IMG/VR virus record: IMGVR_UViG_3300045988_086395
Strand: one strand, 5' to 3'
DNA from: a virus
Length of the DNA: 16,487 nt
Part shown: piece after piece, positions 40-16,487 of the stretch
Layout of the letters: each line of letters opens with the position of its first letter
Numbering within the stretch: the first letter of the stretch is position 1
Translations under genes and position numbers: made by a program
The notes under the pieces: generated by a model
What the model was told of the DNA's origin: nothing
What the model saw: the letters and a program-made list of their open reading frames with translations, nothing else
Databases searched by the model: none

Positions 40-324
40 CACCGAACAAATGTTCGCTTCCCATTCCTATTCTTTTCATGTTTTTCACTTGACAACAACA
101 CCAACATATGCATAACAAAATAAATCCTTGACAGAATGAACAAGCTATGCTAGCACGTCGAAAAGTATACACTGTACACATGCAATCTAGTCAACAATTG
201 ACTGGCCGTTGCTAAGTGTACACTGTATACTACTGCACCACTCATCCATAGAAAACGTGAATGAGACAACGCACGTATAACGTGCTATAATGGTCTTGTC
301 GTTGAGGAGAAGGAGTGGAAGATG
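40..324. repeat. Left inverted terminal repeat (285 bp). It is the exact reverse complement of 16164-16448 and runs through the ATG of the first gene.
   Basis: A stepwise reverse-complement comparison of both ends checked several long blocks and all were identical. The match ends at ...GGAGTGGAAGATG, after which the two ends diverge (ATGAAAAG vs ATGGCAAT). Confidence 0.85.
263..291 (+). promoter_or_regulatory. Sigma-A-type promoter inside the left ITR. Elements: -35 GAGACA (263-268), 17-bp spacer, extended -10 TGcTATAAT (283-291). The spacer is occupied by the palindrome GCACG-TATAA-CGTGC (271-285), which looks like an operator.
   Basis: Read directly from the sequence. Spacing and the TG-extended -10 are canonical. 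The RBS AAGGAG (311-316) and ATG (322) follow. Confidence 0.6.
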
Positions 325-552
325 AAAAGATGCAGTAATAAATTTATCATTTATTATTCAAATGATGTAGATGTGGAGAAAGTTTATGCGTCACTTAGGT
401 TAGATCAAGCAATGATGAATTTCATTGAAATAAATAATGATAAAATGTTCTCGTTAATAGCATATGATACTGATGATTATATTAAAGCATTGGATATGAT
501 TAAAGGGCAATATAAGTATTATATCGCTGATTTTCTAGAAAAGGATGAATAA
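322..552 (+). CDS. Hypothetical early protein (76 aa), first gene of the left-end operon.
   Basis: ATG sits immediately at the inner ITR boundary, preceded by AAGGAG with 6-nt spacing. Its stop overlaps the next start (TAATG). Confidence 0.6.
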   Translation: MKRCSNKFIIYYSNDVDVEKVYASLRLDQAMMNFIEINNDKMFSLIAYDTDDYIKALDMIKGQYKYYIADFLEKDE

Positions 553-1696: not shown

Positions 1697-2716
1697 TTAC
1701 TGCAAGTTGAGAACATTGCTCATTTCATAGAACAACTCTCTACATTTCGCACTTGAAAAATAGACGTTGCCTAGACGATACATGTTAAGTAACGCCTTGA
1801 TTATTGGGTGCGATTTTTGTATCATCAAGAGATTTGGCGTCATGTCGTTTTTAGTCAGGCAGAATACATTGTTGGTTTGCCTAGCGTAATCCCCCACATA
1901 GTATTGCAGCATTTTTGAATCGAGATATACTGAAAATGTCTGTTCCCCGTATTGTATGGCATAGCAATAACGTGCGTCCTTAGGAATCGATGAAACAAAC
2001 GTGTCCGTATCATCCATGAATTCATTGGCAATGGCGTAATCATCATAGCCCGTAGCTTTAGCAAGGTCGCCAAACGCTGAATTCATCAGCTCATTTTCAC
2101 TTTCTGCGTTATGATATAAATGCACGCATACGCGATTGTTGGCTCGCATGATGAATTCTTTATTTTTAAGGTCATCAATTGAAATTCCAAGCTTGACGAA
2201 ATATGGATTGACAATAGAAACAGCATTGCTTGCAAAGATCATTCGCGTTGAGAATCTGCGACGGTCGACAGTATGCCAAAATCCCAAGGCTTGGTTGACT
2301 TCGTTGGTGAGATAATGCATGTTGCGCGTGTTCTCGATGATGAATTCATCGAACATGATTTTATTGCATTTCGAATAGTCTCCGCCTTTACGTGCTTGCT
2401 GGGTGGAAAGCCAGCGGAAATGCCCCATTCTCTGCCACGAGGTATTCTTCCCCACCTTTTTCGCCTGCATTGTATAACCTTTAGTTCGGAAATCATAGTT
2501 TTCATATTTTTCCGCGATATCATCAAAAAACGTGTACCTGTCTTCCAGCTCGCTTTCATAGCGGCGCAGATAGATCATTTCGTTTCCGTGTTTTTTCCAG
2601 TCGCGAATACCCCAGTCCTTAAAGCCATAGGTTTTTCCCGCGCTTCGATGCCCAGTCAAAAAATTCCAAAATGCGCCGCGCGTGAGAAGTGGATGATAGT
2701 CAACGTAAACGCTCAT
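1697..2716 (-). CDS. DNA encapsidation (packaging) ATPase, homolog of phi29 gp16.
   Basis: Walker A GHRSAGKT. Blocks NFLTGHRSAGKTYGFK, IYLRRYESEL, IMFDEFI and ASNAVSIVNPYF align to remembered phi29 gp16 motifs. The ATG at 2716 overlaps the upstream stop (ATGA). The ORF-track start at 2737 is a TTG. Confidence 0.9.
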   Translation of the reverse strand: MSVYVDYHPLLTRGAFWNFLTGHRSAGKTYGFKDWGIRDWKKHGNEMIYLRRYESELEDRYTFFDDIAEKYENYDFRTKGYTMQAKKVGKNTSWQRMGHFRWLSTQQARKGGDYSKCNKIMFDEFIIENTRNMHYLTNEVNQALGFWHTVDRRRFSTRMIFASNAVSIVNPYFVKLGISIDDLKNKEFIMRANNRVCVHLYHNAESENELMNSAFGDLAKATGYDDYAIANEFMDDTDTFVSSIPKDARYCYAIQYGEQTFSVYLDSKMLQYYVGDYARQTNNVFCLTKNDMTPNLLMIQKSHPIIKALLNMYRLGNVYFSSAKCRELFYEMSNVLNLQ

Positions 2717-4125: not shown

Positions 4126-4768
4126 CCTTATAATCATTATTTTCTAAAATTGACTGATTAGTAGGCGCATCTACGGAAACTGCATGAGCGTATGCTTCCC
4201 ACGCGCTGCGATCTCCGAAGAAATGATTAAGGTCTAAGCTAGCATCCCACCCATTTACAGCACCTAGCTCTGAGTATTGCCAGCAGCATACGAGGCCATC
4301 GGTTTCTAGGTGATCGCCCGGGTCATCATAAAGAGTCATAACTTGCTTGGGCTTGGGATATTGCGCGATCCATCGCCCGCAATTGGGGTCCACGCCCCCC
4401 TGGTTAAATCGCCATGGATTCGCATAAATCCACGGCCACACTCTCGTTTTTTCATACACTCGGCGCACGAATTCGTTAACCCATTCAACAGATTGATCTT
4501 TTTCCCAGTCTAATATTGGAATTCCGTGATTAAAATAACCCTCGCAATTTTTGATGAACCAATCACACTCTTTTATAGGGTCGTTATTCCTGCCGAAGTG
4601 ATAGAATCCAAAAAGTTTATTAGATTTTATAGCACGCTGAATTACTCCGTCACAATATGGATTGACATAAGTAAGTCCTTCGGTTGCTTTTGAAATGACA
4701 AAATCAGCAGCAGTATCTTGGATTTGGAAATCTTTTTGCCTCGACGAAACATCAACTCCTCTAAGCAT
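4106..4768 (-). CDS. Endolysin, a GH25 muramidase (Cpl-1-like catalytic domain) with no obvious cell-wall-binding module.
   Basis: GVDVSSRQ...FVISKATEG..YVNP...FGFYHF...LDWEKD...CCWQYS follows the GH25 signature. The ATG at 4768 overlaps the holin 3' end. The ORF-track start at 4780 is a TTG. Confidence 0.85.
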   Translation of the reverse strand: MLRGVDVSSRQKDFQIQDTAADFVISKATEGLTYVNPYCDGVIQRAIKSNKLFGFYHFGRNNDPIKECDWFIKNCEGYFNHGIPILDWEKDQSVEWVNEFVRRVYEKTRVWPWIYANPWRFNQGGVDPNCGRWIAQYPKPKQVMTLYDDPGDHLETDGLVCCWQYSELGAVNGWDASLDLNHFFGDRSAWEAYAHAVSVDAPTNQSILENNDYKVVIEKK

Positions 4769-8294: not shown

Positions 8295-10435
8295 CGGATC
8301 ACCTCATTGTCTGCCACGTCGATTCGTCCCATCTTAGCAGGATCAGTCCAAACGGTCACGCCTTTTTCGAAAATTCCTCGAATCGTTTGCCGGTATTCCT
8401 CCGGAACCGATGACGAGAAAATATAACATTGCGTCATTTTCCAATAGGTAAAATTTTTGCAACACATCAAAGACGCGGGAACATTTACGAAGCCATTGTA
8501 AGCATATCCGTAACGCAGCCAGTATTCGCCAACCGTGCGAAGAAACGCATCTTTGATACGCTTGATTTTAAGCGTCACGCCGAAATACCCCTTGGCGATC
8601 ATCAATGCATCGCCTCCAGCATTGCCGGATATCGATGGTGCGATAACCTCAGCATCCTGCACCTGCGCATTGATGGCTGCAATCGCTTGCTGATAATCTC
8701 CTTGCGCTGCGAAATTACCATAAGACAAGTTGGTATCTGCAACATATTTGCCAGTATTGTAATTGTTGGTTGCAGTTTTGGATGCTAACATGTTGCTAAT
8801 CTCGGTGCTGCGATTGTTAGCCTTATATTGTATCGTTGTACTGGCAGCAGCGTTTGCAATGCCAAGCGCTGATGATACAATGTTTCCAGATGCCAGCGAG
8901 TTAGCGGCGCTCTGCAAACCACCTGCCAATGCTGTCATATTCCTCACGTCATTCTGCGCGGTATTTGCCTGAATTCCAGCCCCCGAATTCATGAGCGCAT
9001 TTTGCAAAGTTGCTGAAGATTGATCATAGCCTAGCTGATTCGCTATCATGGCCTTGTCGCGCGACCATCCTGCATTGCTATATGCATATGCACGGCTACG
9101 CGCGGATGACGCAATTGTCAATGCGTAACTGTCATTGACGACAGAAAATCTCGGAAAATTCGAAACAATTAATGCCGCATCCATAAATTCCCCGCAGTGG
9201 ATAGTAACAGATTGCGTGTTGCCGCTTAACGTAGCAGCCGTAAATTCATCATTGCCGCCAGTTGCCCTGCCATTATATCTCTCTGGATATACTGCGTATT
9301 GTGTAAATGGCGGTGTATTTAATCCGAGTAAACGAAACGAATAACCATTAACTGTCAATAATAAACCATCAGGCTTATACACTATCGCTTGCCCCGAATT
9401 ATCCGTTAATTCTATAGCACTATATGGGTAAGAATATAGTTTAGTGAGATTTTTATACCTCGAAGGAATATACCAACTATCTATATTAACATCAAAAAAT
9501 ACAGTTCCTTCTCCTCTACTCCCAGATTTCAATTTATAAGCAGGTATATTTCGTATTTTTACTTCATCGCCAAGGTCTAGAAATTTAGATGCGCCTATTG
9601 TAATAATCTGTATACATTGGCTTACCCATGGATAATTAGATATCGCCTTCATAAAATGCTCAAAGTTATCTGCTCTAATTGCATATACTTCACACCCACT
9701 TGGTATGTCCTCTATAATATCGCCTTTAGCTGTCCTTAATTCTGGATCATTTATATCGCCCCAATTTTGCAATGTCAAATCCGCGGTAGAAGATACTAGT
9801 ACATATAATGGACTGTCATCATGCATCCAACTATCATGTTTAACATTTACAATCTCATAATCACTTCCAATTTCTAAGCCCTCAGGCAATGTAGCGATCT
9901 GATTGGATATTGGTGTTGCTAAATATTCCTCTGGTGCAGGCAACTGCTGCATAGCATAATGCCCGCGCTCCAAATAGCAATTGCCAAACTCCACGCTGTT
10001 TCCGTACGTCGTCCATACATCCAATTGCACGTTTAGCCGCGTAGTGTTCGGTGCGATATAATCCATTGATGTAATAAAATAAAAATAATCAGTGCGCGCT
10101 CCCGGCTCTTCACCGGGCACCGGAAAAAACGGCTGATGTACATGCAGATAATTGTAACCGTTTGCTGAGTTAAAAGGCTTAGGGATCATCACTGGATCGC
10201 CATATTTCAGAATGACCTTCGTAGTCAATTGAAAAGGCAGCGAATTTTTCAATCCATTAAAATATGCGTCTCGCTCTGCATCATTTGCAAACTTGACAAT
10301 ATCACGATATGACATATCCCATGGAACATTGCATAACGTGACTGTAGTATCCTCAGTCCATAACTGATAATTAAAATTGTTTTGATATTTATAAATATTT
10401 TCCGGGACTCCCGGAAAATTCGGCAAATCTTGCAT
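8291..10435 (-). CDS. Tail knob / distal tail tube protein, homolog of phi29 gp9.
   Basis: The C-terminus GYFGVTLKIKRIK...YGYAYNGFVNVP...CYIFSS...IRGIFEKGVTVWTDPAKMG...DNEVIR parallels the gp9 C-terminus. Gene order is MCP-tail-portal as in phi29. Start taken as the ATG at 10435, since the ORF-track 10441 is a GTG. Confidence 0.85.
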   Translation of the reverse strand: MQDLPNFPGVPENIYKYQNNFNYQLWTEDTTVTLCNVPWDMSYRDIVKFANDAERDAYFNGLKNSLPFQLTTKVILKYGDPVMIPKPFNSANGYNYLHVHQPFFPVPGEEPGARTDYFYFITSMDYIAPNTTRLNVQLDVWTTYGNSVEFGNCYLERGHYAMQQLPAPEEYLATPISNQIATLPEGLEIGSDYEIVNVKHDSWMHDDSPLYVLVSSTADLTLQNWGDINDPELRTAKGDIIEDIPSGCEVYAIRADNFEHFMKAISNYPWVSQCIQIITIGASKFLDLGDEVKIRNIPAYKLKSGSRGEGTVFFDVNIDSWYIPSRYKNLTKLYSYPYSAIELTDNSGQAIVYKPDGLLLTVNGYSFRLLGLNTPPFTQYAVYPERYNGRATGGNDEFTAATLSGNTQSVTIHCGEFMDAALIVSNFPRFSVVNDSYALTIASSARSRAYAYSNAGWSRDKAMIANQLGYDQSSATLQNALMNSGAGIQANTAQNDVRNMTALAGGLQSAANSLASGNIVSSALGIANAAASTTIQYKANNRSTEISNMLASKTATNNYNTGKYVADTNLSYGNFAAQGDYQQAIAAINAQVQDAEVIAPSISGNAGGDALMIAKGYFGVTLKIKRIKDAFLRTVGEYWLRYGYAYNGFVNVPASLMCCKNFTYWKMTQCYIFSSSVPEEYRQTIRGIFEKGVTVWTDPAKMGRIDVADNEVIR

Positions 10436-10525: not shown

Positions 10526-11923
10526 CTACTCAGTAGTCGGAACGTACTTGGCGCCAATGCCAACTACCATAGATGCGGTCTTCGGAGTCTGACCGCTGAT
10601 CGGTTTATCAGGATCGATATACGACAGCGTAGCCTGGACGGTAACATTGGTCGCCGTCTCATCAGGGTCAACATGCAGCACACCATCATTGGTAACATAC
10701 GTGTGAGGTGCGAGCGCCTTGTCGGACGCCGTAATCGTGAGATATGCACCATCGGGCACATGCACATCGGGGTCTACGGGATCGACGGTGCCGTTAGCCG
10801 TAACTTTGAGCTGCGTATCTTCACCGACAGGCGCGAACTCAGGAGTCGTGCCGTCCTCTTTTTCAGCAAATGCAATCGTCGCACTAGCAACATTGACGGT
10901 AACAGTCGTCAAGCCAGTACCCTCCTCAAGCGTAAACAACACCGCATTGAGCATCGGCGACATGGACATGATCCCCTGGTGATGCAACCAATGGTTGGTG
11001 GTCAGCGTCGACGGGTTGTAAAAACTCGTATTTTCAAAAACGGAATCAGCGCAAATAAACCAATCACGATCAACAAGCGCTGCCTGCGCACCGTTAACCG
11101 GGAACTCATCAACGATGACTTGGCGAGTCTGCATTTCGGCGGGCTCCAAATGGAAAAGCGGGGCCAGACCCTCAACGTCGATCGCAGCCTCAACATCAGG
11201 CGTCATGATAAGCAGCATGTCCTCAGGCCGCGAGAATACCGGCAACCCGTATGCATTGTAATAGGGGCGCTGGAAACTGAGACGACGAGTGTATGCGCGT
11301 AGCAAGCGCAGAACTTTACGAGCATTGGTAGTAATATCAGTATCAACGGACAAATCAGGCGTTTGAACTTTGTAAAAGCCCCATTTCTGCTCGTACGTCG
11401 CGAACAGATTGACCATGGTATCATACTCAGCTTGCGAGTTGGAGTTATACGGAATATCCATGATCGAATTTACGAAATCGTTAAGTCCGTACTCACTCAG
11501 AAATGCACGGCGAAGCTCGACTTCATTGACCGTGATCGGAAATTTCCACTCGAAATTTCGATGGTGAAACGCGCTCTTGAATTCAGGCGGGTTACAATCA
11601 AGAAGATCAATTGCGCACGGATCATACGTTTTCGGCTTGATCAGATTCGCGCCGACTTCTTCAATCGTATTGCCATACATCAACATGCCACGCTTCAGCG
11701 GCGCAAGCGGATTTTCCCAACGACGCGAACGAATGACGACTTCACCAATTCGATTCACAAGTGCATCAACAAATTCATTCCAAAACGGGCGCGAATTCGG
11801 ATTTTGAAAAAATTCAACAGTCTGGCTAATGTTACCCTGCGTCACGCGCGGCACGTTCTGCTGGTAATTAGTAGAGCCATTCAACCAGATTTTATTAAGT
11901 ATAGTAGCATTATTCTCTGCCAT
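10526..11923 (-). CDS. Major capsid protein (phi29 gp8-like) with a C-terminal Ig-like (BIG2-type) domain.
   Basis: NEFVDALVNRIGEVVIRSRRWENPL...GNTIEEV and ALVDRDWFICAD align to remembered gp8 blocks. The C-terminal beta-rich TVTVNVASATIAF...KVTANGTVDPV segment resembles the gp8 Ig-like domain. GAAGGA RBS. Confidence 0.9.
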   Translation of the reverse strand: MAENNATILNKIWLNGSTNYQQNVPRVTQGNISQTVEFFQNPNSRPFWNEFVDALVNRIGEVVIRSRRWENPLAPLKRGMLMYGNTIEEVGANLIKPKTYDPCAIDLLDCNPPEFKSAFHHRNFEWKFPITVNEVELRRAFLSEYGLNDFVNSIMDIPYNSNSQAEYDTMVNLFATYEQKWGFYKVQTPDLSVDTDITTNARKVLRLLRAYTRRLSFQRPYYNAYGLPVFSRPEDMLLIMTPDVEAAIDVEGLAPLFHLEPAEMQTRQVIVDEFPVNGAQAALVDRDWFICADSVFENTSFYNPSTLTTNHWLHHQGIMSMSPMLNAVLFTLEEGTGLTTVTVNVASATIAFAEKEDGTTPEFAPVGEDTQLKVTANGTVDPVDPDVHVPDGAYLTITASDKALAPHTYVTNDGVLHVDPDETATNVTVQATLSYIDPDKPISGQTPKTASMVVGIGAKYVPTTE

Positions 11924-11925
11924 GT

Positions 11926-12291
11926 TTAATCCTTCCGACGAGTCATATCGAGATCATCATAATCAATGCCTCGATCTTCGCCCGAATCGTCATCTTCCTT
12001 GCGATCGTCCACGTCTGCCGCAGACGATGCGCCGCCATTCATCATCAGCTCATAATTCTTATCAAGCAGCTTATCATAACGAGTACGCAAATCATCATAT
12101 TTCTTGTCGTACTCGTCACGTTCTTTTTCCAACTCAACAACACGCGCTGCCTGCTGATCAGCTACCTGCTGAGACGTCAAGTTCTCATCGTCCCACTGAT
12201 CGAAATACTTGTCTAGTTCATCAGCAGCAAGCGGGCCGTCTTCCCACGCGCTTTCACGGATGCGCTGGATAATCTCTACGGGCCTCTCCAC
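11926..12291 (-). CDS. Head scaffolding protein (acidic, coiled-coil). The start is probably the GTG at 12291. The alternative ATG at 12336 has no RBS and lies inside a GC hairpin.
   Basis: Highly acidic helical sequence (..EKERDEYDKKYDDLRTRYDKLLDKNYEL..) directly upstream of the MCP. A strong RBS AAGGAGAG sits 5-7 nt before the GTG at 12291. Confidence 0.6.
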   Translation of the reverse strand: MERPVEIIQRIRESAWEDGPLAADELDKYFDQWDDENLTSQQVADQQAARVVELEKERDEYDKKYDDLRTRYDKLLDKNYELMMNGGASSAADVDDRKEDDDSGEDRGIDYDDLDMTRRKD

Positions 12292-12313
12292 GTCAGCTCT
12301 CCTTCCATCAAGC

Positions 12314-12334
12314 GGGGGCGGTTTGCCCGCCCCC
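12314..12334 (-). promoter_or_regulatory. GC-rich stem-loop GGGGGCGG-GCAAA-CCGCCCCC with no U-tract. Possible leaky terminator or processing site between the candidate structured RNA and the scaffold gene.
   Basis: Perfect 8-bp G/C stem read directly from the sequence. On the minus strand it is followed by GCTTGATGG-AAGGAGAG-CTGAC-GTG. Confidence 0.35.
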
Positions 12335-12341
12335 AAATATC

Positions 12342-12459
12342 CGAGTGATTGATGCTATGCACTGTAGAGCTGCCAGCTAAGCCATGCATCCTGGCGCGTG
12401 TTACCGCGGGCTGTCCAGGCTTGCACTCCCACTCCGCGAACGCCATAGCCATCACTACG
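12342..12459 (-). ncRNA. Candidate structured RNA, possibly the prohead/packaging RNA (pRNA). It is about 115 nt and GC-rich, and its 5' and 3' ends pair in a bulged helix.
   Basis: It starts about 6 nt after the -10 of the 12465-12493 promoter. The 5' arm AGUGAU-G-GCUAUG (12456-12444) pairs with the 3' arm CAUAGC-AUCA-AUCACU (12359-12344), the same end-to-end pairing as the pRNA A-helix. The interior has CGCGG/CCGCG and GCCUGG/CCAGG helices. The 3' segment ACAGUGCAUAGCAUCAAUCAC resembles the phi29 pRNA AAAGUGCACGCUACUUUGAUA. The region is non-coding in all six frames. Confidence 0.45.
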
Positions 12460-12464
12460 TTTTC

Positions 12465-12493
12465 AATATAACACGCTAACTGTCTATTGTCAA
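12465..12493 (-). promoter_or_regulatory. Near-consensus sigma-A promoter (TTGACA, 17 bp, TGtTATATT) in the pol-scaffold intergenic region. It is a candidate promoter for the structured RNA and/or the late operon.
   Basis: Minus strand reads TTGACA-ATAGACAGTTAGCGTGT-TATATT. It lies 14 nt downstream of the pol stop. Confidence 0.6.
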
Positions 12494-12506
12494 CAAAAAC
12501 ATCAAA

Positions 12507-14147
12507 TCAACGGATGGTGAAATCAGACTCGACCAGCACAATACCGCCTGGCACATGTTTCGGCACAAGCTTGCCTCCTGGGACAACCAAGCCTATATCA
12601 AAATCTTCAAACCTCACCTGATCACGCATATCCGCCGAAAGCCCTGCACACTTCACAAGATTCTTTCCGTTCACAACCTCGATATACGTTTTCTGCCTCG
12701 GATATTTTGCTTTTTCAAAATCATATTCATGATCCCAAGCGCCAAGTTTCGTCTTGTGAATTTCAAGGCCGCTTGGAATTTCCAGCCCCTCCAAATGCAG
12801 ACTGTCAGTGTCAGCGTATAAAAATCTATTGTACTCATTCTGCGCATGGCTGATAATGTCTTGTCTCGCATACGCCGTAATAAACGCTGCGGCCGCAGTA
12901 TACACTGGATCGCGGTATTCAGGCTCGGCAAACACAGGATATTTAACAACCCCGTCTGCATCTATCATGCATGTTCTACCTGTTACATCAGGGTTAGTTG
13001 CAAGCTTGCCATACAGCGAATTGAGCATAAGCTTCGCTATCATCCTAATAGCTCCAGTGCTTGTTTCTTTAACATGCATCCAGTATTCAATGTACGGATC
13101 AAAAATTCCATTCGCACTTTTAAAAACATAAGCTTCATGATATTCTACCACGTCAACAATGTAATGCTCTTTAAATAGCTCGAAATCAACCGACGTTAAA
13201 CATAATTCCGTCGGCTCATCTATTTCCTCGACATATTGATTATCCATAAAATGCGGGTTGCGTTTGATCTGTAATGTTGGTAAAAATCCATCGCGCAATC
13301 TCGCTGTCACATGCATACGCTGTATATGCAATTTATCTCCAGTGTATCTCCCATCATAAATTGTCGGGTATCCAACAGGCATAGATCGTTGTACCATCAT
13401 CGACGGATACATGCTGTTTTTATCGTAACAACATCCAGGGCCAATAACTCTCCCTTTAGCAATGTCACTTACATATGTGTATCCTCCACGATATGACTTA
13501 CGAATTTCTGCATCCAATTCAAGCGGCAAAACGGGGAAATATTTCTTAAAATTAAATGTTGACTTCGCATGCTTCAGCGCATCAGCACCAATCGTCAATG
13601 CATTCAACGATTGCGCTAATTGCACCCGCAATGCGCAGGCCACGATTTTCACGTCGTTTGAAATATATTCTATTTCATGCTCTGTAAGCTCGTGCCCTGG
13701 CTCTCTATATTCTTGATAATTTAGATCGAGTTTCTGATAATCTAAACCAAAATCCTTAGCAATCGTATCAACGGAAAAGGGCAGCTTCTTGTAACTGTCC
13801 CTAATCTCACAAACATTACTCCCTTTTTTCGTCCTCGAAAAACATATCTTCGCGTTATAAAATTTACGTTGCTCACTCATTAACAACGTAAATTTCTTAG
13901 TATTTAATTTTTCAGCACATTCAAATCCCAAATGCCCCATCAAATAAGCGGCCAAAAATTCAAAATCAAATACTGCGTTATGAAAATAATACGTACCGTT
14001 ATTTTCCTGCATGAAATCAACAAACGTTTCAATTCGATTCCCAAACCATATATTGTTCTCATCAGCAACTTCGCAAACCGACCACGCCCAAACACGACAA
14101 TCATTTCGATCTGTCGTCGTTTCAAAGTCTGCCACATACTCCATCAT
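12507..14147 (-). CDS. Protein-primed family-B DNA polymerase (phi29 gp2-like).
   Basis: ExoI DFETTT + DCRVWA, ExoII FDFEF, ExoIII YISND, motif A NSMYPS, KLMLNSLYGK, motif C YADTDS and KxY RQKTYI. Length 546 aa against 572 for phi29. Confidence 0.95.
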   Translation of the reverse strand: MMEYVADFETTTDRNDCRVWAWSVCEVADENNIWFGNRIETFVDFMQENNGTYYFHNAVFDFEFLAAYLMGHLGFECAEKLNTKKFTLLMSEQRKFYNAKICFSRTKKGSNVCEIRDSYKKLPFSVDTIAKDFGLDYQKLDLNYQEYREPGHELTEHEIEYISNDVKIVACALRVQLAQSLNALTIGADALKHAKSTFNFKKYFPVLPLELDAEIRKSYRGGYTYVSDIAKGRVIGPGCCYDKNSMYPSMMVQRSMPVGYPTIYDGRYTGDKLHIQRMHVTARLRDGFLPTLQIKRNPHFMDNQYVEEIDEPTELCLTSVDFELFKEHYIVDVVEYHEAYVFKSANGIFDPYIEYWMHVKETSTGAIRMIAKLMLNSLYGKLATNPDVTGRTCMIDADGVVKYPVFAEPEYRDPVYTAAAAFITAYARQDIISHAQNEYNRFLYADTDSLHLEGLEIPSGLEIHKTKLGAWDHEYDFEKAKYPRQKTYIEVVNGKNLVKCAGLSADMRDQVRFEDFDIGLVVPGGKLVPKHVPGGIVLVESDFTIR

Positions 14148-15965: not shown

Positions 15966-16166
15966 TTAAGTCTCTATAACTGTATAATATCCTTCTTTAT
16001 CCAATTCTATAATTTTCTTAACCAACATAGATATATCGAAAAAAGAAAACTTTCTAATGCCCGAAATACCAACAAACTTGTCCATTGCATTTATATTGCG
16101 ATCAAGTTCGTTAAACAACCTAGCAACATCATGTACTTGAGAACAATAAACAATATAAATTGCCAT
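15966..16166 (-). CDS. Hypothetical early protein (66 aa), first gene of the right-end operon. Its promoter, 5'UTR, RBS and ATG are identical to those of the gene at 322.
   Basis: ATG at the inner boundary of the right ITR. Possibly a distant paralog of the 76-aa left-end protein (shared IYIVY...V.DV......L / ..KFSFFD pattern). Confidence 0.55.
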   Translation of the reverse strand: MAIYIVYCSQVHDVARLFNELDRNINAMDKFVGISGIRKFSFFDISMLVKKIIELDKEGYYTVIET

Positions 16167-16448
16167 CTTCCACTCCTTCTCCTCAACGACAAGACCATTA
16201 TAGCACGTTATACGTGCGTTGTCTCATTCACGTTTTCTATGGATGAGTGGTGCAGTAGTATACAGTGTACACTTAGCAACGGCCAGTCAATTGTTGACTA
16301 GATTGCATGTGTACAGTGTATACTTTTCGACGTGCTAGCATAGCTTGTTCATTCTGTCAAGGATTTATTTTGTTATGCATATGTTGGTGTTGTTGTCAAG
16401 TGAAAAACATGAAAAGAATAGGAATGGGAAGCGAACATTTGTTCGGTG
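16164..16448. repeat. Right inverted terminal repeat (285 bp).
   Basis: Exact reverse complement of 40-324. Confidence 0.85.
16197..16225 (-). promoter_or_regulatory. Mirror copy of the ITR promoter (-35 GAGACA, operator palindrome, TGcTATAAT). It drives the right-end early operon inward.
   Basis: Exact reverse complement of 263-291. Confidence 0.6.
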
Positions 16449-16487
16449 CTGTCTCTTATACACATCTGACGCTGCCGACGAAGGCTT
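16449..16487. other. Nextera adapter remnant: reverse complement of the mosaic end, TCGTCGGCAGCGTC and the i5 tail. Not biological.
   Basis: CTGTCTCTTATACACATCT GACGCTGCCGACGA AGGCTT is the reverse complement of bases 1-39. Confidence 0.9.

Follow-up and report, generated by a model that had tools for sequence, protein, structure and literature searches.

A predicted divergent packaging RNA gene between the polymerase and scaffold genes of an uncultured phi29-like phage

A promoter and a non-coding gap upstream of the late operon

The 16,487-nt stretch of viral DNA analysed here (IMG/VR record IMGVR_UViG_3300045988_086395, referred to below as the window) is a complete small phi29-like genome, whose genes lie on the minus strand in the order early/polymerase, scaffold, capsid, tail knob, connector, lower collar, tail genes and packaging ATPase. 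Between the gene for the protein-primed DNA polymerase (pol) and the scaffold-like gene is a gap of 215 nt (12506-12292), the only sizeable non-coding gap on the late-gene strand. In all likelihood this gap encodes a divergent packaging RNA (pRNA), a new member of the pRNA family. To our knowledge, pRNA is the only RNA that is essential as a structural part of a viral DNA-packaging motor. A preliminary description of the locus had proposed a pRNA gene with its own promoter, situated internally and just downstream of pol, and this proposal is supported by matches to two covariance models (R2 and R3, see below) and by promoter-driven RNAs found in syntenic position in related phages. The features of the region are collected in Table 1. 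The loci used for comparison, about 170 in number, were gathered by protein-guided retrieval from viral, metagenome and read-archive assemblies, and are labelled L001 onward.

The promoter is exactly where it had been placed, and agrees with the sigma-70/sigma-A consensus at 11 of 12 positions. It ranks first among the 43 promoter-like sites of the window, a total that is not above the shuffled expectation, and it is conserved in L001 and L002, with a single -10 change in L001. Transcription is predicted to start at about 12458 on the minus strand. The G+C content of the predicted RNA segment, previously noted as GC-rich, is 58%, compared with 44% for the genome. The extended -10 is nearly identical in the candidate pRNA promoters of the phages Baseball_field (L177 ~385-413(-)) and PumA2 (L178 ~213-241(-)), which have the same layout, TTGACA-17-TGTTATA(C/T)T.

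The gap was initially described as 170 nt long, up to the scaffold start, the scaffold-like ORF being listed from TTG 12336. The sequence makes GTG 12291, preceded by a strong Shine-Dalgarno motif, the most likely start: the N-terminus (V/M)ERPV(E/D)IIQR is kept in L005 and L007, both of which have a Shine-Dalgarno sequence ahead of an ATG or GTG codon. With this start, the gap spans 12292-12506 and includes an extra hairpin (12334-12314). Gene callers disagree in the same way about the scaffold homologues of L005 and L006 (153 aa vs 131 aa). The statement that the gap is non-coding in all six frames needs correction, in that a 59-aa open reading frame (ORF) with a GTG start, 12455-12276(-), overlaps it. 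We rejected this ORF as a gene, since it has neither a Shine-Dalgarno sequence nor a conserved counterpart in L005 or L007.

Table 1. Features of the pol-scaffold gap and the main genes of the window
Feature	Position	Strand	Evidence or remarks
Sigma-70/sigma-A-type promoter, TTGACA-17-TGtTATATT	12465-12493	-	11/12 consensus positions; extended -10 TG
Promoter boxes	-35 TTGACA 12493-12488; extended -10 TGtTATATT 12473-12465	-	
Predicted pRNA domain I, ~115 nt	12344-12458	-	Non-coding, G+C-rich, holds CE arm; synteny with L005, L007/L008, L010-L016, CH17P1
Predicted A-helix, 5' strand AGUGAU-G-GCUAUG	12444-12456	-	2 nt past predicted transcription start
CE arm	12387-12422	-	Top match of models R2 and R3
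Possible CE-arm extension, GUGCA : UGCAU	12426-12422 : 12388-12384	-	
Helix C strands, 5' CCUGG and 3' CCAGG	12419-12415 and 12394-12390	-	
5' bulge ACAGCC, 6 nt (CE-loop equivalent)	12414-12409	-	
Helix E CGCG / hexaloop GUAACA / CGCG	12408-12395	-	
Candidate D arm, AGC-UGGCA-GCU (12378-12368) or GGCU-UAGCUGGC-AGCU (12383-12368)	12368-12383	-	Sequence reading
Predicted A-helix, 3' strand CAUAGC-AUCA-AUCACU	12344-12359	-	Pairs with 12456-12444
G+C-rich hairpin GGGGGCGG-GCAAA-CCGCCCCC, then GCUUGAUGG	12314-12334	-	8-bp G+C stem, no U tract
Scaffold Shine-Dalgarno GGAAGGAGAG (12306-12297) and GTG start (12291-12289)	12289-12306	-	Conserved N-terminus
Protein-primed DNA polymerase (pol)	14147-12507	-	PHROG/Pfam search, E 1.9e-150; early genes precede
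Scaffold-like gene, opens late operon	After pol and gap	-	
phi29-type major capsid protein	11923-10526	-	PF25622 Phi29_MCP
Tail knob, lower collar and further tail genes	Between capsid and ATPase genes	-	
Connector/portal, GP10-type	8294-7359	-	PF05352 Phage_connector, E 8.3e-47
Gp16-type packaging ATPase	2737-1697	-	PF05894 Podovirus_Gp16, E 2.7e-55

A CE arm recognized by models with disjoint seeds

Two covariance models of the pRNA CE arm were applied. R2 (36 positions, 10 pairs) was built from 12 arms of uncultured phages, with the window and the Bacillus-phage sequences excluded from its seeds, and R3 from the arms of GA-1, Karezi, MG-B1 and Baseball_field only; the two seed sets are disjoint, and the window is in neither. 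Both models place their best match on the same 36 nt, 12422-12387(-), at full length and without insertions or deletions. For R2 the score in the window is 21 bits (E 1.7e-4), and the match keeps E 0.0065 in a 1.2-Mb search; for R3 it is 23.9 bits (E 7.7e-4) in a search of the window and five relatives (128 kb, both strands). All covariance-model E-values in this study are rough, since the calibration was shortened and errors of several-fold are possible, and the models are short.

The match lies 36 nt downstream of the promoter. Nine of its ten model pairs are standard, the outermost being G.A. When it is set against the GA-1 arm, 9 of the 12 unpaired bases and three pairs are identical, while six of the ten pairs have changed on both sides and still pair. 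The hexaloop is common to the nearest relatives (GUAACA in L005, GUAAAU in L007), and helix C shows a compensatory change between these two loci (GCGG:CCGC vs GAGG:CCUC). Of the interior GC helices proposed earlier, CCUGG/CCAGG corresponds to helix C; CGCGG/CCGCG is not part of the supported structure, in which CGCG/CGCG forms helix E.

R2 was also run on Bacillus phages, among them two with an annotated or predicted pRNA. In GA-1 (NC_002649), whose pRNA is annotated at 1719-1879(-), the top genome match of R2 lies inside this gene (1849-1814) with all ten pairs, and is not significant alone (12.8 bits, E 0.13). The top match in Karezi falls in the gap for which a GA-1-like pRNA prediction has been published (E 0.0013; PMC9965433). 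Top matches were likewise obtained at the unannotated left ends of MG-B1 (L176 266-301(-), E 0.0017), Baseball_field (L177 308-343(-), E 0.0028) and WhyPhy (L179 135-171(-), E 0.08), and a weak, second-ranked one at the left end of PumA2 (L178 133-167(-), E 1.2). All of these left-end matches are on the polymerase strand, and the left genome end is where the pRNA genes of such Bacillus phages lie. R2 missed the arms of phi29 and of the Nf type, and a blastn search with the GA-1 pRNA recovered only its close relatives. The left-end CE arms of MG-B1, Baseball_field, WhyPhy and PumA2 have the stem CACG/CGUG and the loop GUGAAA or GUAAAA, and PumA2 could form the kissing pair AACC:GGUU, the same as in phi29.

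A family of promoter-driven RNAs in related phages

A blastn search of 11900-13000 against phage records gave no match. By polymerase, the closest cultured relative of the window is the Hungatella phage CH17P1 (L004, OP172758; 45.6% identity), and the nearest informative loci are L005 (64%) and L007/L008 (62%); one metagenome scan revealed no relative closer than 49% besides a truncated 99% copy. L001 and L002 were set aside as covariation tests, being 99% identical and hence uninformative, as was L003 (36% polymerase identity), whose gap holds a small AT-rich ORF and is not homologous.

The nearest informative loci, and many others of 40-50% identity, have a promoter shortly after pol, in some cases with a small ORF in between. 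It has the layout TTGACA-17-TAnnAT, and about 7-9 nt beyond it comes the 5' strand of a closing helix, which opens a G+C-rich RNA of 100-130 nt whose two ends pair. A promoter-driven RNA of this topology directly behind pol is carried by relatives of 45-64% polymerase identity. What follows the RNA differs between loci. In a scaffold-adjacent group (L005, L007, L010-L016, L089-L091, L097-L105) a separate hairpin precedes the scaffold Shine-Dalgarno sequence, as in the window. In an ATPase-adjacent group (CH17P1, L004 13686-13793; L030, L034, L068, L077) the RNA is followed by the packaging ATPase gene, and in L018 and L009 there is a stand-alone RNA gene, with its own terminator, antisense to early genes. 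Given these different neighbours and the stand-alone copies, the RNA family is not tied to a downstream gene.

Several details of these loci deserve mention. In the subgroup of L018 (942-995(-)), L009 (1023-1074(-)), L093, L094, L109 and L111, the RNA gene stands alone in a gap of the early region, on the opposite strand from pol, and has both a promoter of its own and a clear terminator. In CH17P1, the segment 13651-13793 contains an unannotated promoter, TTGACA-17-TGgTAACAT, and a 108-nt RNA of pRNA topology, with the A-helix GGUUACAUA/UAUGUAACC followed by UUUUU and with the kissing pair GCUA:UAGC; it is located between a tiny post-pol ORF for a membrane peptide and the packaging ATPase gene. 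An ORF of 52-74 aa separates pol from the RNA promoter in L007 (2526-2750), L008, L011-L016, L089 and L090 (4209-4367), and is absent from the window. The one in L090 has a weak ribbon-helix-helix Pfam match, and these small ORFs may encode a regulator of the RNA or of the late promoter.

The RNAs of the family are built in a constant order: closing helix, helix C, a 5' bulge of 5-8 nt, helix E of 3-4 bp, the 3' strand of helix C, a short linker and a D hairpin. The RF00044 consensus and the phi29 and GA-1 folds have the same order. The hexaloops are GUGAAA, GUGAUA, GUGACA, GUAACA and GUAAAU. A third covariance model, R1 (57 positions), made from seven ATPase-adjacent cores and including a D hairpin GGG-N6-CCU, matched 18 loci below E 1e-5 in a set of 85 sources; in another set, of 83 sources, 21 loci reached E 1.4e-4 or lower. 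R2 misses the scaffold-adjacent group, with its 3-bp helix E, 7-8-nt bulge and shifted register.

Covariation is evident at the level of the family. In an alignment of 42 distinct sequences, 93.7% of the cells pair, compared with 69.5% after shuffling, and 11 of the 13 pairs have changed on both sides; the alignment was fitted to the model, which favours this pairing score. The covariation score is 0.54, whereas shuffled sequences score 0.16 and slid partners 0.06-0.19. Concerted changes are also seen in the CE bulge and the D loop: their longest Watson-Crick match averages 4.07 bp within sequences and 2.75 bp across sequences, and none of 10,000 permutations reaches the observed total. At least 12 distinct types of bulge:D-loop pair occur in the family (among them GCUA:UAGC, GUCA:UGAC, GUCAC:GUGAC, UGUAA:UUACA, AGCAA:UUGCU, GCUAA:UUAGC, ACCA:UGGU, UGUUA:UAACA and GUUGCA:UGCAAC), and the pairs of the scaffold-adjacent group covary too (UGCUA:UAGCA, UUGCC:GGCAA, UGCCA:UGGCA, CGCAA:UUGCG, GCCA:UGGC). 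It is pairing between the CE loop and the D loop that joins phi29 pRNA molecules into a ring (PMC4201828). Moreover, the flanks of the family core pair at a mean of -23.2 kcal/mol, compared with -12.8 for cross-locus and -11.8 for shuffled flanks. The RNAalifold consensus of the full-length RNAs aligned with MAFFT is weak because the alignment is poor. A loose descriptor of the structure, written by hand, found matches everywhere and was discarded; a stricter one, which serves as a rough census only, matched 68 of 168 loci, against about 21 in shuffles.

Folding of the window RNA and arguments against a pRNA

The two helices previously described as closing the RNA, AGUGAU/AUCACU and GCUAUG/CAUAGC, can indeed form between 12456-12444 and 12359-12344. 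This predicted A-helix of 6+6 bp, with pair probabilities of 0.5-0.88, dominates the thermodynamic ensemble; in the model based on it, stretches of 17 nt and 8 nt at the junction stay unpaired. The minimum-free-energy fold pairs the 3' strand of A with the internal segment GAGUGG...GUGC instead, producing a three-way junction (-39.1 vs -35.8 kcal/mol). A junction of the kind for which the preliminary description had suggested looking is present in that fold, but with an internal outer helix, and the D arm is ambiguous. The candidate D arms would allow the CE bulge to pair with the D loop in one of three registers: GCC 12411-12409 with GGC 12374-12372, CAGC 12413-12410 with GCUG 12377-12374, or AGCC 12412-12409 with GGCU 12383-12380. 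L001 and L002 show no variation there that would settle the choice. Kissing pairs of 2-5 bp have been reported for known pRNAs (PMC4201828), and D loops with UGG(C/U)A are also found in GA-1, Karezi, L010, L091 and L116. The nearest relatives, L005 and L007, carry a conserved extra hairpin, UCGGCG-GCAG-CGCCGA, which the window does not have, and their RNAs can be aligned with that of the window in the arm only. Since this extra hairpin lies between the A and C strands, a four-way junction is suggested for the lineage; the junction may contain an additional element and be four-way rather than three-way.

Several results weigh against the presence of a pRNA at this locus. The homology evidence for the window is limited to the 36-nt arm, with the rough E-values given above, and helix C has an ensemble probability of only 0.09. 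R1 did not match the window even with filters off, and the GGG-N6-CCU D hairpin of the ATPase-adjacent group is not found there. The A-helix is a marginal signature, hardly above chance, since pairing with the 5' end is at least as good for about 5-6% of shuffles and for about 5% of the 24-mers of the genome. A duplex test of the flanks (45 x 50 nt) gave no excess pairing over controls in the window. The folding energy did not differ from that of shuffled sequences for any of three cuts (z = +0.10, -0.94 and +0.52), compared with z of about -2 for phi29 and GA-1 and about -1.2 for two relatives. Neither phi29 nor GA-1 has an equivalent of the 17-23 nt that separate the A and C strands, and both the D arm and the kissing register, of 3-4 bp, are ambiguous. 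Covariation, which was to be checked in relatives, is seen for the helices and the bulge:D-loop pairs of the family, but the clade of the window offers no direct test, its sole close relatives L001 and L002 being invariant in the RNA. The hairpin beyond the RNA, at 12334-12314, has the G+C stem of an intrinsic terminator and no U run, its tail being GCUUGAUGG; the terminator scan did not list it because it has no T run.

Two further arguments of this kind concern Rfam and the portal protein. No Rfam family, RF00044 included, matched the whole window at gathering score or the region 12250-12600 at E <= 10. The RF00044 search, which had been proposed as a check, is uninformative for a divergent pRNA because the model is too narrow. 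By its description it covers the three-way-junction core of phi29 pRNA, with a gathering score of 100 bits; a pRNA of the Nf/Goe1 type (L044 5388-5503) scores 48 bits, and Karezi (L069) gives no match at E <= 1 despite its published GA-1-like pRNA prediction (PMC9965433). RF00044, which in essence detects phi29 alone, therefore appears far too narrow for annotation. As regards the portal, which is 34% identical to phi29 gp10, the N-terminus is basic in both phages (MSRKRKK in the window, MARKRSN in phi29), and the N-terminal 14 residues of phi29 gp10 have been reported to bind pRNA, according to a reference cited in PMC9965433. The GA-1 portal is without the N-terminal RKR motif, for which reason the motif is weak evidence.

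Gene content and genome ends

As previously described, the genome encodes a gp16-type packaging ATPase (PF05894) and a gp10-type portal (PF05352), and it encodes a phi29-type capsid protein too. The window is bounded by a perfect inverted terminal repeat of 324 nt (1-324 and 16164-16487), or about 286 bp without adapter, and therefore contains both genome ends. The repeat is long for a phi29-like phage. Its outermost positions, 1-38 and 16450-16487, are the Illumina Nextera transposase adapter (…TCGTCGGCAGCGTCAGATGTGTATAAGAGACAG), i.e. library and not phage sequence, whose presence at both contig ends suggests that the assembly reached the physical ends of the linear genome. Promoter-like sites in the repeats point inwards (263-291 (+) and 16225-16197 (-)).

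A pRNA elsewhere in the genome had been named as an observation that would speak against the locus; scans of the window with the covariance models, both genome ends included, revealed no second candidate. The left terminal repeat contains an imperfect palindrome or hairpin, 163-231, mirrored in the right repeat, with 16-nt arms AGTATACACTGTACAC / GTGTACACTGTATACT, an inner GUCAA-CAA-UUGAC hairpin and an RNA fold of z = -3.5. It was rejected as an alternative pRNA, as it is a simple imperfect palindrome without a CE-arm match, and it may be an operator or replication-origin element. Weak partial matches to both arm models, on both strands, were seen at a 21-nt near-palindrome, UUUUCCGGGA(C/G)UCCCGGAAAA (10398-10418), located inside the 5' part of the tail-knob ORF and just downstream of a strong post-capsid terminator (10485-10455).

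The 3' hairpin, the late operon and alternative interpretations

The hairpin 12334-12314 lies 10 nt past the A-helix. Hairpins of other sequence occupy the same place in L005 (4655-4677, then GCUUUUGG), L007 (2822-2844) and the L010-L016 group, and U tracts follow the hairpin in L005 and in several of the L010-L016 relatives. In the window, the hairpin may form the RNA 3' end, act as a leaky terminator or constitute a 3' domain. There is no room for a separate promoter between it and the scaffold Shine-Dalgarno sequence; because no other promoter precedes the scaffold gene, read-through past the hairpin would express the late operon. The RNA, lying directly upstream, may therefore also serve as the leader of this operon.

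This arrangement raises the alternative that the gap contains a late promoter and a structured 5' leader or attenuator, acting only in cis to tune the scaffold-capsid-tail-ATPase operon, without any role in the motor. The single promoter and the hairpin right before the Shine-Dalgarno sequence (in the window, L005, L007 and the L010-L016 group, several with U tracts) would fit such a leader, as would the lack of a thermodynamic signature of a stable stand-alone RNA. We nevertheless regard it as improbable, since the same CE arm precedes the ATPase gene in CH17P1 and many other loci, stand-alone antisense genes with their own terminator occur in L018 and L009, and the GA-1 and Karezi RNAs lie in the early region. 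Furthermore, complementarity between a bulge and a distant loop that covaries, together with a match to annotated pRNAs, is not expected of a simple attenuator. The leader and pRNA interpretations are partly compatible, because one transcript could serve both roles.

A different trans-acting small RNA, involved in regulation, replication or defence evasion and merely resembling the pRNA arm, could equally have a strong promoter of its own and a terminator-like hairpin, and the resemblance to pRNAs is confined to the 36-nt arm, the A and D helices being uncertain here. No Rfam family matches, however, and the bulge, stem and loop of the arm are as long as those of known pRNAs, with 9 of 12 unpaired bases matching; the proteins of a motor that works with pRNA are encoded, and no other pRNA candidate is present in a genome with both of its ends. 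We thus consider such an RNA very unlikely. It is just as hard to credit that an ordinary intergenic promoter region, rich in G+C, folds by chance into a CE-like arm: although the folding energy equals that of shuffles, the G+C-rich flanks pair equally well when shuffled and the E-values come from short models with a shortened calibration, two models with disjoint seeds choose the same 36 nt as best without insertions or deletions, 36 nt downstream of the best promoter and in the sole sizeable non-coding gap of the late strand, and the RNAs of L005 and L007 share with it the synteny, the GUAACA/GUAAAU hexaloop and a helix C with compensatory changes.

Proposed mechanism and implications

If the gap encodes a pRNA, as we infer, the strong constitutive promoter would start transcription at about 12458 on the minus strand, and the first ~115 nt would fold as pRNA domain I, comprising a closing helix of the 5' and 3' ends, the CE arm and a D hairpin. 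If the RNA behaves like those of phi29 and GA-1, its copies would assemble into a ring at the portal vertex of the prohead, and pairing (3-4 possible pairs) of the CE bulge of one molecule with the D loop of its neighbour would keep this ring together. The A-helices would dock the Gp16-type ATPase, which would pump the terminal-protein-linked DNA into the head, and this would be the role of the RNA in packaging. The 3' end is probably set or protected by the hairpin 12334-12314, in which case the transcript would measure about 125-150 nt; transcription passing the hairpin would feed the late operon, so that the RNA may be both pRNA and leader.

With less than even confidence, we suggest that pRNA is ancestral and widespread in phi29-like motors, rather than a peculiarity of Bacillus phages, and that in the window its gene has become joined to the start of the late operon. 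A single consensus promoter would then yield an mRNA of the structural genes whose 5' leader is the pRNA, and the balance between free pRNA and late message would be set by a leaky hairpin or a processing site. The clade of the window consists of uncultured phages, probably infecting gut Clostridia.

The pRNA is widely used as a building block in RNA nanotechnology. Were our interpretation correct, pRNA would extend to a distant lineage of uncultured phages and, going by the same models, to the cultured Hungatella phage CH17P1 and a large number of metagenomic genomes, and dozens of divergent natural pRNAs with covarying kissing loops would be at hand. The generality of the RNA scaffold in phi29-like motors would become directly testable, and the sequences would support a much broader covariance model for the annotation of these phages.

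Comparison with known packaging RNAs

The preliminary description assumed that all known members of this phage family require a pRNA, which is not established. A review from 2024 considers pRNA unique to phi29 and related Bacillus phages (PMC11476376), it has been described as specific to the same phages elsewhere (PMC5066667), and for asccphi28 no evidence of a pRNA was reported, this phage having been chosen for motor studies since none was evident (PMC7823558). A pRNA outside Bacillus phages has been claimed before, in the phi29-like Actinomyces phage Av-1 (L180, NC_009643), where a misc_RNA (16295-16402) is annotated as "packaging RNA". This segment overlaps ORFs on the opposite strand and is not matched by any of the models. 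The best R2 match in Av-1 is at 4482-4517 (E 0.0035), in the gap after pol and ORF7, and overlaps annotated promoter boxes. Av-1 and the window are similar in gene order (in Av-1 pol, small ORF, gap, late genes); at the end of the gap after ORF7, a strong terminator hairpin stands before a Shine-Dalgarno sequence, much as the hairpin of the window does.

Compared with phi29, the window RNA has the same predicted order of elements (A, C, 5' CE bulge, E with a 6-nt loop, C, D, A), a promoter of its own, and a predicted domain I of about 115-120 nt followed by a 3' hairpin, a separate domain in phi29. Both phages have a Gp16-type ATPase and a GP10-type connector with a basic N-terminus. The CE bulge of phi29 is 8-9 nt long and its E loop is UUGAGU, whereas the bulge of the window has 6 nt and the loop is GUAACA. 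The 3' segments, compared by eye, have little in common beyond AGUGCA, and the phi29 gene is at the genome end, while that of the window is internal.

The internal position, which had seemed non-canonical, has a precedent in GA-1 and Karezi (PMC9965433). The pRNA genes of these Bacillus phages (Salasmaviridae, Tatarstanvirinae) and the window RNA alike have their own sigma-A promoter and lie internally, downstream of pol and on the same strand; a terminator hairpin follows the former (PMC9965433), and the window likewise has a 3' hairpin. The geometry of the CE arm is identical: helix C has 6 bp and terminates in GG/CC, the 5' bulge has 6 nt of which the last two are CC, helix E has 4 bp, and the hexaloop reads GUAA(A/C)A. 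In one of the two candidate D arms of the window, the D loop also has the form UGG(U/C)A. In both types only a few kissing pairs are possible, two being reported for GA-1 (PMC4201828). No similarity can be detected beyond the arm. The G+C content of the window RNA is 58%, 17-23 extra nt lie between its A and C strands, and its D arm is not directly adjacent as in those phages. The host also differs, in that the closest cultured relative of the window infects Hungatella and not Bacillus. Finally, the GA-1/Karezi pRNA is situated inside the early region, whereas the RNA described here is immediately upstream of the late operon. The window probably contains a known kind of RNA in an unusual place, belonging to a large set of apparently unannotated homologues.

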